Sequence record: NC_048638.1
Source of the DNA: Pseudomonas phage ZC03
Length of the DNA stretch: 64,000 nucleotides
Reading direction: 5' to 3' (one strand)
Shown here: in pieces, positions 36,191-37,737 of the stretch
Numbering within the stretch: the stretch's first letter is position 1
How the letters are laid out: each line of letters starts with the position of its first letter
Notes under the pieces: model-generated
Database searches by the model: none
Told to the model about the DNA's origin: nothing
What the model saw: only the letters and a program-made list of their open reading frames with translations
Translations under genes and position numbers: made by a program

Positions 36191-36267
36191 ACACCCGTAG
36201 CTCAGTTGGATAGAGCAGGAGCCTTCTAAGCTTTTGGTCGTAGGTTCGAATCCTACCGGGTGTGCCA
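36191..36267 (+). tRNA. tRNA-Arg (anticodon TCT)
   Basis: Manual cloverleaf: acceptor ACACCCG/CGGGTGT, D-arm GCTC..GAGC, anticodon loop CTTCTAA, T-arm GTAGG-TTCGAAT-CCTAC, CCA encoded. Confidence 0.75.
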
Positions 36268-36274
36268 ATTAAGA

Positions 36275-36351
36275 GGGTCTCAAGCTTAAGTGGTATAAGC
36301 ATCCCGCTCATAACGGGGAGATACAGGGTTCAAATCCCTGGAGACCCACCA
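36275..36351 (+). tRNA. tRNA-Met/Ile2 (anticodon CAT)
   Basis: Acceptor GGGTCTC/GAGACCC, anticodon loop CTCATAA, T-arm CAGGG-TTCAAAT-CCCTG, CCA encoded. Confidence 0.7.
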
Positions 36352-36370
36352 AAACGTGTTTACTTACAGT

Positions 36371-36434
36371 CGTACTATCTGATGAGCTTCCGACTATAAA
36401 TGAAGCGAAACTCCTGTAAGGGAGTCATAGTGTC
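36371..36434 (+). ncRNA. hammerhead ribozyme (open stem I, type I topology)
   Basis: Complete core read directly: stem I 5' GTACTAT, CUGAUGA, stem II GCTTC-11nt-GAAGC (G10.1-C11.1), GAA, stem III ACTCC-TGTAAG-GGAGT (A15.1-U16.1), C17, stem I 3' ATAGTG. Predicted cleavage after C at 36426. Confidence 0.7.
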
Positions 36435-36677
36435 TGCTATGAGTAGACCATGAATGAGTTGTTACCCTTATCATTCATGTTATGTTAATGACTACTGAGC
36501 AACTCAAAACTCATAGTCGATGGGTAACGGTAGCCTTGAGAAAGCTACAAGTTGTTCGTTGTGCTAGTATTCAGGACGAGAAGACAGGATGTCCTGGTAC
36601 GGTATAGTGAGCAGCCGTCAACCATCCTGATGGGGATTCCGGAGTCTTTGTTAGGATGGTTGGTGGATGTTCATTAT

Positions 36678-36752
36678 TGGTAAGTAGCTCAATGGTAGAG
36701 CATCCGGCTGTTAACCGGACGGTTGTAGGTTCGAGTCCTACCTTACCAGCCA
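36678..36752 (+). tRNA. tRNA-Asn (anticodon GTT)
   Basis: Acceptor TGGTAAG/CTTACCA, anticodon stem TCCGG/CCGGA with loop CTGTTAA, T-arm GTAGG-TTCGAGT-CCTAC, CCA encoded. Confidence 0.75.
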
Positions 36753-36756
36753 ATTT

Positions 36757-36835
36757 TGGTAAGCTGGCTCAGCTAGAGGGCTGGTGGATCTGGTTTCTAG
36801 CGATCAGATTACAGGTTCGAATCCTGTCTTACCAA
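36757..36835 (+). pseudogene. degenerate tRNA-like element (same acceptor stem as tRNA-Asn; no canonical anticodon arm)
   Basis: Perfect 7-bp acceptor TGGTAAG/CTTACCA and T-arm ACAGG-TTCGAAT-CCTGT, but the D and anticodon regions cannot be folded into a 5-bp stem with 7-nt loop. Confidence 0.4.
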
Positions 36836-36845
36836 TCAATTTATT

Positions 36846-36920
36846 CGGAGTGTAGCGCAGAGGTAGCGCGTCTGCTTTGGGAGCAGAATGTCGGGAGTTC
36901 GATCCTCCCCACTCCGACCA
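36846..36920 (+). tRNA. tRNA-Pro (anticodon TGG)
   Basis: Acceptor CGGAGTG/CACTCCG, D-stem GCGC/GCGC, anticodon stem TCTGC/GCAGA with loop TTTGGGA, T-arm GGGAG-TTCGATC-CTCCC, CCA encoded. Confidence 0.75.
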
Positions 36921-37153
36921 AACACCTTTCCCCCGAGGTGTAATAGTGCCTCATCGACGCCTCATCGAGAAAGCACTAACCGTTCCCTCTGGCGGTATAT
37001 CCAGAGGGCATTGAAAAGGGATCGTGAACCGCAGTTGATCGAGCGGGATTGTTCAGTAGGGTCCGTGTGTCCTGTCGCGCGAAAGGATTACCTCCCTCTG
37101 GCCCGGTTTGCCCCGGACGATCCTTTCTCAATGCAAGTGAATGTATTGAAAAG

Positions 37154-37233
37154 AACCCTGTAGCTGAATTGGTTCACGCGCTGGCGATTACGGGCAACGT
37201 CCAGAGATGCAGGTTCGAATCCTGCCAGGGTTC
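37154..37233 (+). pseudogene. tRNA-like element without a resolvable anticodon arm, flanked by 19-bp direct repeats
   Basis: Acceptor AACCCTG/CAGGGTT (complementarity extends to 10 bp) and T-arm GCAGG-TTCGAAT-CCTGC. An exhaustive by-eye search found no 5-bp/7-nt/5-bp anticodon arm. Flanking repeats are TTCTCAATGCA(A/G)GTGAATG at 37125..37143 and 37234..37252. Confidence 0.35.
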
Positions 37234-37398
37234 TTCTCAATGCAGGTGAATGCGTAGGCTGATGCGCCTCTGGAACTTGCAATGGCCAGCGGCCCAGATT
37301 CTGCGGGGGTCGCAAGCCGGAGATCAGCACCGGCCACCTGCATTACCCGTGCGACGGGTAGCTGGGAATATTCGCGTCATCCAATACCAGCACTTTAA

Positions 37399-37482
37399 GG
37401 GGAAGTGGTGTAGTGGTAGCCACGCTGGTCTTAGAAACCAGTGCTGAAAAGCGTAAGGGTTCGAATCCCTTCTTCCCCACCA
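37399..37482 (+). tRNA. tRNA-Leu (anticodon TAG), class II
   Basis: Acceptor GGGGAAG/CTTCCCC, anticodon stem CTGGT/ACCAG with loop CTTAGAA, long variable arm, T-arm AAGGG-TTCGAAT-CCCTT, A73, CCA encoded. Confidence 0.7.
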
Positions 37483-37487
37483 ATTAA

Positions 37488-37574
37488 GGAAGAGTGGCAG
37501 AGTGGTTTAATGCATCGGTCTTGAAAACCGACGACTGTAATGGTCCGTGAGTTCGAATCTCACCTCTTCCGCCA
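37488..37574 (+). tRNA. tRNA-Ser (anticodon TGA), class II
   Basis: Acceptor GGAAGAG/CTCTTCC, anticodon stem TCGGT/ACCGA with loop CTTGAAA, long variable arm, T-arm GTGAG-TTCGAAT-CTCAC, G73, CCA. Confidence 0.7.
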
Positions 37575-37580
37575 ATCAAT

Positions 37581-37656
37581 GCCAATGTAGCTCAATAGGT
37601 AGAGCAGTGCTCTTGTAAAGCAAAGGTTGTAGGTTCGATTCCTATCATTGGCTCCA
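37581..37656 (+). tRNA. tRNA-Thr (anticodon TGT)
   Basis: Acceptor GCCAATG/CATTGGC, D-arm GCTC..GAGC, anticodon loop CTTGTAA (one mismatch at 27:43), T-arm GTAGG-TTCGATT-CCTAT, CCA. Confidence 0.65.
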
Positions 37657-37660
37657 ATAC

Positions 37661-37737
37661 GCGGGTGTAACCCAACAGGCAGAGGTAGAGGACTTAAAAT
37701 CCTTTCAGTGTGGGTTCGAATCCCACCACCCGTACCA
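37661..37737 (+). tRNA. tRNA with anticodon TAA (Leu-UUA reading) but a short class I variable loop
   Basis: Acceptor GCGGGTG/CACCCGT (G1-U72), anticodon stem GAGGA/TCCTT with loop CTTAAAA, 5-nt variable loop, T-arm GTGGG-TTCGAAT-CCCAC, A73, CCA. Confidence 0.5.

Follow-up and report, generated by a model that had tools for sequence, protein, structure and literature searches.

A composite structured RNA in the tRNA array of Pseudomonas phage ZC03 and the apparently uncatalogued phage RNA motif at its 3' end

Several small phage RNAs are co-transcribed with transfer RNAs (tRNAs) or are substrates of RNase P, e.g. species 1 and 2 of T4, M3 of phi80, c4 of P1, and the CI RNA of P4, and several of these stable RNAs are still without a known function. 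GOLLD, which like ROOL comes from Firmicutes, rumen, and lake samples, can carry a tRNA within its variable region, and ribozymes of the hepatitis delta virus (HDV)-like "theta" type occur in phage tRNA arrays. Here we analyze an interval of 478 nucleotides (nt), positions 36921-37398, in the tRNA array of Pseudomonas phage ZC03 (NC_048638.1); all coordinates refer to the 64,000-nt stretch of DNA that was analyzed, called the window. ZC03 is an N4-like phage whose nearest relative is Pseudomonas phage ZC08 (Schitoviridae, Zicotriavirus), with 96.7% identity over the tRNA array. In the 64-kb window, ARAGORN places ten tRNA-type genes at 36191-37737 on the + strand, and the interval lies between the end of tRNA-Pro (36920) and the start of tRNA-Leu(TAG) (37399).

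We propose, with a probability of about 0.7, that this interval is a composite structured non-coding RNA whose 3' part belongs to a phage RNA family, hereafter the core, and is processed as a stable RNA. The identity of the interval, taken by itself, is nearly certain, whereas the processing and stable-RNA mechanism has slightly less than an even chance of being right. The core family appears to be uncatalogued.

The core RNA and its covariation

The initial annotation of the window had described a GC-rich, foreign-looking insert full of stable hairpins. The GC content of the interval is 0.552, against 0.427 for the window as a whole, and in a profile of 478-nt sliding windows (mean 0.427, standard deviation 0.032) the GC peaks of the 64 kb all fall inside the interval (maximum 0.565). 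For comparison, the eight canonical tRNAs of the array, all of which encode N73-CCA, have a mean GC content of 0.526. The foreign look holds only in the sense that members of the RNA family have a high GC content in all hosts (0.51-0.67) and that the family is horizontally shared among unrelated phages. All features of that annotation were recovered where it had placed them, the hairpins that it named fold as described, and the fold stability of the whole region corresponds to z = -2.7. An open reading frame (ORF) scan of the region gave short overlapping ORFs only, none of them convincing and none resembling a transposase or an integrase.

The core is a four-way junction composed of helix P1, an AAU linker, hairpin P2 with a GGCUGA loop, a variable arm P3, and hairpin P4 with a AGAUCAGCA loop. 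The long-range pairing GCAGGTG...CACCTGC, which had already been pointed out, is real and corresponds to P1; in the distantly related Pseudomonas putida phage Jeremy the same pairing reads GCAGAUG/CAUCUGC, a compensatory change with respect to GCAGGUG/CACCUGC in ZC03. P1 measures 7-10 base pairs (bp), the stems of P2 and P4 are 5 bp each, and P4 is joined to the 3' strand of P1 with zero nt between them. P3 covers 24-170 nt and may have any length, not only multiples of three. Roughly 35 nt are near-invariant across proteobacterial classes.

Two alignments carry the evidence for this structure. In alignment A3 (59 diverse copies), P1 contains eight double-changed pairs, with 4-5 pair types per position, and P4 contains three such pairs. 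In alignment A5 (91 distinct copies), four of the five P2 pairs are double-changed and 99% of the cells are paired; these copies were retrieved via their 3' half only, and thus the 5' half, which includes P2, is free of search-pattern bias. The covariation score is 0.27-0.28, compared with 0.08-0.09 for shuffled alignments (0 of 500 reach the observed value) and with no more than 0.11 when the partners are slid. G.U pairs outnumber A.C mismatches by 39 to 11, indicating that the + strand is the folded strand. The alternative of an unrecognised structured RNA, raised in the initial annotation, is thus strongly supported by covariation and by hundreds of homologues.

The GGCUGA and AGAUCAGCA loops are almost invariant while the stems vary, and they are complementary to each other (GCUGA:UCAGC). 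In a structural model, this complementarity could allow a kissing interaction between the loops, like that of the D and T loops at the tRNA elbow.

A covariance model (R1), built from aligned copies of the motif, detects a single copy in the window (Table 1). Its scores elsewhere, in bits, are 85.1 (HK620-type prophages), 72.5 (ZC08), 65.3 (phage P1), and 57.2 (Jeremy). The P3 arm itself is not uniform, and a recurrent subtype containing CUGAUGAGCUACUGAGUCCUAGAUGAGUUAGGCC is present in eight otherwise different loci (L016, L078, L085, L091, L118, L138, L169, and L176), which suggests the existence of interchangeable classes of P3. A loop of 7 nt resembling that of an anticodon arm was also considered for P3 and discarded as a general feature, being found in one subtype only.

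Distribution and genomic setting of the motif

The scans of sequence collections were pattern-based, and the counts given here are therefore lower bounds from a biased sampling. A 22-nt word, GCAGRTGAATGCGYAGGCTGAT, is present in more than 119 IMG/VR viral contigs, and a 20-nt word, TGAATGCGYAGGCTGATGCG, in more than 120 species genomes, mostly of gamma-, beta-, and alpha-proteobacteria; the 3' half by itself (GCCGGAGATCAGCRCCGGCCA) retrieved additional viral contigs. Matches were obtained in 1040 of 5426 complete Escherichia coli genomes (~19%), on both chromosomes and plasmids, and in 153-171 GenBank phages, including HK620, HK633, mEp460, Stx2a and Stx2c phages, T1-like phages, Webervirus, Ackermannviridae, Aeromonas phage ST4, and the N4-like phages IME11, S5, and 24-32N. 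About 293-297 distinct copies were counted. The phages that carry the motif, some temperate and others virulent, represent at least six morphotype groups. The matching phage and genome records do not label the motif as an RNA, and some of them place hypothetical ORFs over it. If it is indeed undescribed, the motif would belong to the more widespread and better conserved of the unnamed RNA motifs in bacteria and phages. Since it is found in genetically easy phages (P1, HK620, and lambdoid prophages), its function is directly testable.

Some copies have particular surroundings. Phage Jeremy has only the short stretch GAUGCAGAUGAAUGCGCAGGCUGAUGCGCC in common with the window; it has its own tRNA-like element 5' of this stretch and CAUCUGC about 100 nt 3' of it. 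Two copies per contig are seen in L252, L283, L284, and L337; in the last of these, they are directly in tandem (393-501 and 518-748), with a tRNA-Pro in P3 of the second copy. In nine Pseudomonas-type prophage contigs (L004, L005, L016, L028, L029, L039, L078, L085, and L121), a conserved GAUGCGGAUGAGUACACACCGCGAAAGCGGCCCCCUGCAUCA lies about 60 nt 5' of the motif and may be another small structured element.

The genomic context of the motif is often linked to tRNAs. A same-strand tRNA is located within 300 nt of 36 of the 293 copies, against 7.2 expected; 27 of these 36 tRNAs are downstream of the motif, often 6-14 nt away. Three copies (L024, L033, and L337) carry an entire tRNA inside P3. 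T-arm motifs occur just upstream of the core at about 13 times the background frequency; where a T-arm lies just 5' of P1, the upstream sequence folds as a long-stem T-arm domain, i.e. a pseudo-tRNA, whose outer pairs borrow part of the 5' strand of P1. In virulent phages, the motif is found at the head of, or within, tRNA clusters. A comparable case to ZC03 is the E. coli N4-like phage 24-32N, in which a 1.5-kb unannotated gap (L123, 2203-3761) contains the motif (82.1 bits), several tRNA-like elements bearing a T-arm, a "tRNA-???", and a tRNA-Ile, forming an RNA island analogous to that of the window.

In temperate phages, the motif is located in untranslated leaders, e.g. between a Q-type antiterminator gene and holin/spanin genes. 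These leader copies are often flanked by terminators; in HK620-type prophages the motif comes right after a lambda-like tR', and in a Stx2a phage it follows a cI-like repressor gene. In a prophage of Enterobacter sichuanensis (L158), it lies about 25 nt past a near-identical match to the putL-like RNA of HK639 (L366, 10188-10313). Phage P1 (NC_005856; L369, 1666-2369) has two copies (65.3 and 27.8 bits) in the C1-controlled leader of the ban operon, which also contains a dicF-like region and three tRNAs, and RCS47 (L368, 2502-3325) has three copies; in both, the presence of the motif was confirmed by covariance-model hits. In P1 and RCS47, the copies are on the + strand, downstream of trnA-trnT and beneath the minus-strand ORFs plp and upl.

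In one alternative explanation, the motif is a cis-acting element, put-like or anti-Rho, which keeps RNA polymerase elongating through untranslated tRNA arrays and terminator-rich leaders. The put RNA of HK022 and HK639 is likewise a phage-encoded RNA element of early operons, located in their untranslated leaders. Copies of the motif are found in leaders of antiterminated operons and just 5' of intrinsic terminators, and conservation across bacterial classes would suit a contact with RNA polymerase. However, put differs from the motif in sequence and structure, and tRNA arrays contain the motif too, as do late leaders past Q, where it is downstream of both Q and tR'. Moreover, the L158 prophage already possesses its bona fide putL-like RNA, separate from the motif and upstream of it, which would supply the put function there; HK639, which also carries an annotated "M3-like RNA", has put and gives no match with R1; the ZC03 copy is in the middle of an array; and P1 and RCS47 have two or three copies each. 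An identity with put antiterminator RNA was thus rejected, and we regard a transcription element of this type as quite improbable.

The annotation of plp and upl on the opposite strand would fit a quite different explanation, in which the interval consists of decaying tRNA genes, a small protein gene, or a feature acting at the DNA level (an origin, a single-strand initiation site, or a recombination joint). tRNA-like pieces are indeed present, and the conserved halves of the motif act as recombination joints in the P3 exchange described below. Yet compensatory changes affect three helices, the length of P3 is unconstrained by threes, the excess of G.U over A.C marks the + strand as the one that folds, no convincing ORF was found, and the motif is on the same strand as the adjoining tRNA genes wherever annotated flanks were inspected. 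Such explanations are very unlikely indeed. With a structured RNA on the + strand, plp and upl may instead be mis-annotations over RNA genes, and the same could apply to other "hypothetical ORFs".

Accessory modules, direct repeats, and the ZC08 indel

The complete interval contains several folded elements in addition to the core.

Table 1 Features of the interval between tRNA-Pro and tRNA-Leu(TAG) in phage ZC03.
Feature	Position	Strand	Basis and comparison
Hairpin ACACCU/AGGUGU, directly after the CCA of tRNA-Pro	36922..36941	+	Folds; ZC08 differs in the loop only
Hairpin region with tandem 10-mer GCCTCATCGA x2 (36948-36968)	36944..36978	+	Identical in ZC08
Accessory hairpin CCCUCUGG-CGGUAUAU-CCAGAGGG (CGGUAUAU as loop), then GCAUY	36985..37008	+	Fold z = -2.8
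Module 1, 16-bp closing stem CAUUGAAAAGGGAUCG / CGAUCCUUUCUCAAUG	37009..37131	+	Minimum free energy (MFE) fold
Direct repeat copy 1: 3' strand of module-1 stem, duplicate P1 5' strand, AAUG	37125..37143	+	Repeat search
Module 2 (pseudo-tRNA), closing stem AUUGAAAAGAACCCUG / CAGGGUUCUUCUCAAU	37142..37244	+	Fold z = -4.6; missing from ZC08
Direct repeat copy 2: 3' strand of module-2 stem, working P1 5' strand, AAUG	37234..37252	+	Repeat search, model R1
Core conserved motif	37235..37347	+	Covariance model R1, 83.9 bits, E = 1e-19
Core: helix P1	37239-37248 / 37335-37344	+	Covariation
Core: linker AAU	37249-37251	+	Conserved
Core: hairpin P2, loop GGCUGA (37257-37262)	37252-37256 / 37263-37267	+	Covariation
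Core: variable arm P3	37268-37315	+	Wholly different P3 in ZC08, identical flanks
Core: hairpin P4, loop AGAUCAGCA (37321-37329)	37316-37320 / 37330-37334	+	Covariation
3' tail: hairpin ACCCGU-GCG-ACGGGU (37345-37359), stem GCUGG/CCAGC (37361-37391)	37345..37398	+	Fold; 100% identical in ZC08

The direct repeats had been interpreted as a possible target-site duplication left by a small mobile or tRNA-derived element. The two 19-nt copies, TTCTCAATGCAAGTGAATG (37125-37143) and TTCTCAATGCAGGTGAATG (37234-37252), are identical at 18 of 19 positions and have a spacing of 109 nt. A further repeat, ATTGAAAAG at 37010 and 37145, had gone unnoticed. Modules 1 and 2 have a common start, AUUGAAAAG, and a common end, CUUYCUCAAUGCARGUGAAUG, and the 19-mer is the end of this common frame. 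Because both modules also start with ATTGAAAAG, the duplicated unit is a stem-closed cassette, and the 19-nt repeats represent the duplicated junction between module and core.

Comparison with ZC08, which is 97-100% identical on either side of the region, revealed the repeat-bounded indel polymorphism that the initial annotation had predicted: ZC08 lacks exactly 109 nt, corresponding to the tRNA-like module plus one repeat copy. In addition, P3 has been exchanged, with an unrelated 111-nt segment in ZC08 against 46 nt in the window, between identical flanks. The exact size of the indel, one tRNA-like element and one repeat copy, is what insertion of a mobile element with a 19-bp target-site duplication would produce. 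Several observations argue against such a transposition. The repeats coincide with functional RNA segments, namely AAUG, the P1 5' strand, and the 3' half of the stem that closes a module, and the helices concerned are conserved in hundreds of homologues; the shared ATTGAAAAG start points to the duplication of a cassette; modules of the same kind occupy the same position without direct repeats in Jeremy, phage P1, L064/L077, and L118; no transposase or integrase ORF is present; and P3 has been replaced while its flanks stayed identical, which points to homologous recombination within conserved parts of the RNA. The target-site duplication was therefore not upheld, and we consider insertion of a mobile element quite unlikely.

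In the simplest account, another cassette sharing the closing stem would have been gained, or lost in ZC08, through recombination between the repeats, and the same process would explain the exchange of P3. Conserved RNA segments would then serve as recombination joints at which cargo (tRNAs, pseudo-tRNAs, and variable arms) is swapped between phages. Optional stem-closed modules lie 5' of the core; ZC03 has two of them, one being a pseudo-tRNA.

This pseudo-tRNA, or module 2, had been recognized as a tRNA-like element without a foldable anticodon arm, and it is indeed not an ordinary tRNA. ARAGORN reports 37153-37234 as a "tRNA-???" with a 2-nt anticodon, and 37154-37233 matches the Rfam tRNA model at 42.6 bits (gathering score 29). 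The element has D and T arms and an acceptor stem prolonged to about 16-18 bp. At the position of the anticodon arm, a CUGG/CCAG stem surrounds a 16-nt loop in place of a 5-bp stem and 7-nt loop, and C-UUC is found instead of an encoded CCA. A match to skipping-rope RNA (RF02924) is below the gathering score (24.4 bits vs 36.7) and falls on this pseudo-tRNA (37153-37233), not on the core. Analogous tRNA-like modules are present in phage Jeremy, in phage P1, and in L027, L064, L077, L108, and L118. An odd "tRNA-???" call in a phage array can belong to a larger RNA as one of its modules.

The other parts of the 5' region are less widely shared. When the 200 nt at the 5' end, the pseudo-tRNA sequence, and the 3' tail were compared by BLAST with all homologous loci collected, only ZC08 was found, apart from the CGGUAUAU hairpin and generic T-arms. 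The CGGUAUAU loop followed by GCAUY is located 99-262 nt 5' of the core in six loci (the window, ZC08, L042, L089, L079, and L090), among which the hairpin stem shows a compensatory variant, CCAGCAG/CUGCUGG. The closing stem of module 1 likewise carries a compensatory change in ZC08, from U-A to C-G, and an A.C mismatch is repaired there to G-C. As read from the sequence, repeat copy 1 could pair with the 3' strand of P1 with one A.C mismatch. In addition, UCCCUCUGGC at 36984-36993 recurs at 37093-37102, 109 nt 3' of the 5' strand of the CGGUAUAU hairpin, and could compete for CCAGAGGG. A periodicity of 109 nt, hinted at by one repeat (D3), was rejected, as the other repeats are inconsistent with it.

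A second odd element is found upstream in the array, at 36756-36837. ARAGORN identifies it as an 82-nt tRNA-Pro(tgg), and the Rfam tRNA model gives 27.6 bits, under the gathering score of 29; its MFE fold has a 9-bp "anticodon" stem with a 6-nt loop, and CCA is not encoded. As noticed in the initial annotation, it reuses the acceptor stem of the adjacent tRNA-Asn, TGGTAAG/CTTACCA being common to both. In ZC08 (L001, 2076-2235), the stem of tRNA-Asn is TGATGAG/CTCATCA, a compensatory difference, and the tRNA-like element keeps TGGTAAG. This suggests gene conversion between tRNA-Asn and the neighboring tRNA-like element in one lineage, at 36678-36837 of the window.

Relation to known RNAs and possible processing

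In order to place the core among described RNAs, we compared it with Rfam 15, including GOLLD, ROOL, twister, pistol, hatchet, HDV-like, C4, and YrlA families, and obtained no match up to E = 10. On the homologous loci, nothing was found on the core in 16 loci at the gathering score, nor in 4 loci at E values up to 10, except for a weak overlap with isrJ. This last match is partial (30.4 bits vs 37) and covers the P4 hairpin and terminator of L059; the isrJ of Gifsy-1 follows anrP, at another position, and the candidate was rejected. A search of the topical literature and for the motif strings retrieved no description of the motif. It is unmentioned in the 224-motif paper, the GC-content/intergenic-region (GC-IGR) papers, the Minerva preprint, and the small RNA preprint on Pas. 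The phage candidate-RNA catalogue PMC10690425 likewise makes no mention of it, but may list it anonymously among its 10,006 candidate RNAs.

In shape, the nearest analogues of the core are tRNA and tRNA-like domains, such as that of tmRNA, the bacterial Y RNA YrlA, and mascRNA. The core resembles tRNA in several respects. Its helices have the order and sizes of a cloverleaf, with a closing helix mostly of 7-8 bp; the linker and P2 amount to about 19 nt, comparable with tRNA positions 8-26; P3 takes the place of the anticodon arm; P4 is a 5-bp "T-like" hairpin that leads directly into the closing helix on its 3' side; and the positions of the two loops correspond to those of D and T loops. In the 3' tail that follows a 7-bp stem, A73 (58%), C74 (51%), and C75 (67%) are favored. 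Moreover, the core adjoins tRNA genes in the same orientation. It differs from tRNA by the absence of a conserved CCA and of a conserved 7-nt anticodon loop in P3, and its loops form, or could form, a Watson-Crick helix of 5-6 bp rather than the G18/G19-psi55/C56 elbow. Replacement of the third arm by a variable insert is reminiscent of transfer-messenger RNA (tmRNA); however, ARAGORN detects no tmRNA, there is neither a tag ORF nor a G3.U70 pair, and in the common types pair 3:70 of helix P1 consists of A and U in either orientation. The Rfam models for tRNA, tmRNA, and YrlA are blank on the core.

In behavior, the nearest analogues are GOLLD and ROOL and the small stable RNAs processed along with phage tRNAs or by RNase P. 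As for GOLLD and ROOL, the motif is often found beside tRNAs and in prophages, and its P3 can hold a tRNA (in L024, L033, and L337) as the GOLLD variable region does, but this is a likeness of context, not of membership: the core has about 70 conserved nt in a total of 100-250 nt, against 580-800 nt for GOLLD and ROOL, contains a single four-way junction, and does not match either model. Being mainly proteobacterial, unlike GOLLD and ROOL, the motif may be regarded as a proteobacterial counterpart to these unexplained tRNA-associated RNAs. The stable tRNA-linked phage RNAs would share with the core the same processing logic, by analogy, and the Rfam C4 families do not match it. A 9-nt resemblance of AGAUGAAUG to the M1 RNA of E. 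coli RNase P is accompanied by neither a model match nor a P4-like pairing and was discarded. Retron, guide-RNA, and integron-attC-like readings were also rejected, as topology or neighboring genes do not fit.

We hypothesized the following pathway for a composite RNA of this kind. The interval would be transcribed together with the tRNA array, and tRNA-maturation enzymes would cut the RNA from the array or leader transcript, with RNase P acting at the 5' end of the downstream tRNA (in ZC03, the 3' tail abuts the 5' end of tRNA-Leu(TAG) at 37399) and trimming at the 3' end; in leaders, release could depend on tRNA-maturation enzymes or on terminators. Processing of the RNase P type is proposed because of the spacing of 6-14 nt to downstream tRNAs and of the A73-C74-C75 bias in the tail. 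The product would be a compact, stable RNA that accumulates, and its invariant loops and junction would bind a partner conserved across bacteria, most plausibly a handler of tRNA-shaped RNA, with P3 and the accessory modules remaining peripheral to the binding. Since unrelated phages share the RNA but no neighboring gene, this partner would be a host factor rather than a phage protein.

Several points weigh against this reading. The likeness to tRNA is one of topology only, as neither the Rfam tRNA model (E up to 10) nor ARAGORN recognizes the core. In about 60% of the copies, helix P1 exceeds 7 bp, so that the U(-1)/A73 bias may simply be due to an additional, eighth base pair. Because the pairing between the loops does not vary, covariation neither backs nor contradicts it; in single sequences, the MFE structure is a nested "rod" that uses the same GCUGAU/AUCAGC pairing. 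ARAGORN finds a tRNA within 300 nt of only about 12% of the copies, and most prophage copies are bounded by terminators. In addition to the biased sampling mentioned above, a few matches in metagenome-assembled genomes of non-proteobacterial phyla may result from mis-binning.

Going further, the core might constitute a functionally new class of tRNA-shaped RNA, with an invariant "elbow" that has its own biochemical role, and not be a passive spacer. We consider this possible though rather unlikely. It could then serve as a decoy or inhibitor of a conserved tRNA-handling enzyme or of a tRNA-targeting immune nuclease, as a ligand or a second-messenger sponge, or as a new ribozyme.

The last of these overlaps with another explanation, in which the core would be a cis-acting self-cleaving ribozyme or processing element that trims array or leader transcripts. 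By analogy, self-cleaving ribozymes of phage arrays are also small conserved folds interspersed with tRNAs. Loop and junction nucleotides that are invariant while helices covary are the usual signature of a ribozyme or riboswitch, a probable hammerhead is present in the same array, and the core often begins right past the discriminator position of an upstream tRNA-like module. Nevertheless, the topology is neither that of a hammerhead nor that of HDV, no ribozyme family of Rfam shows similarity up to E = 10, many copies are directly followed by intrinsic terminators, and the borders of P1 show no conserved dinucleotide that would be a candidate for cleavage. A ribozyme or processing element is improbable.

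The hammerhead just mentioned would, under the composite RNA proposal, also contribute to release in ZC03. It is located at 36372-36433 (+), 20 nt past tRNA-Met and about 800 nt 5' of the core, and is probably of type I. It comprises CUGAUGA (36379-85), stem II GCUUC/GAAGC, GAAA (36407-10), stem III CUCC/GGAG, and GUC (36424-26), such that the hammerhead core, the NUH triplet, and three helices are all present, with a predicted cut after 36426. In ZC08, there are three compensatory changes in stem I and otherwise loop changes only, and the hammerhead core is invariant. With Rfam, the candidate remains under the gathering scores of Hammerhead_3 (21.2 vs 48.5) and RAGATH-1-hammerhead (18.5 vs 56.3).

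Between the predicted cut and tRNA-Asn lies a stretch of about 250 nt that is not tRNA (36427-36677, +). BLAST and sequence comparison revealed no homologue beyond ZC08 among the collected loci. The stretch is near-identical in ZC08 and contains a long hairpin, AACCAUCCU...AGGAUGGUU; it may be another processed RNA.

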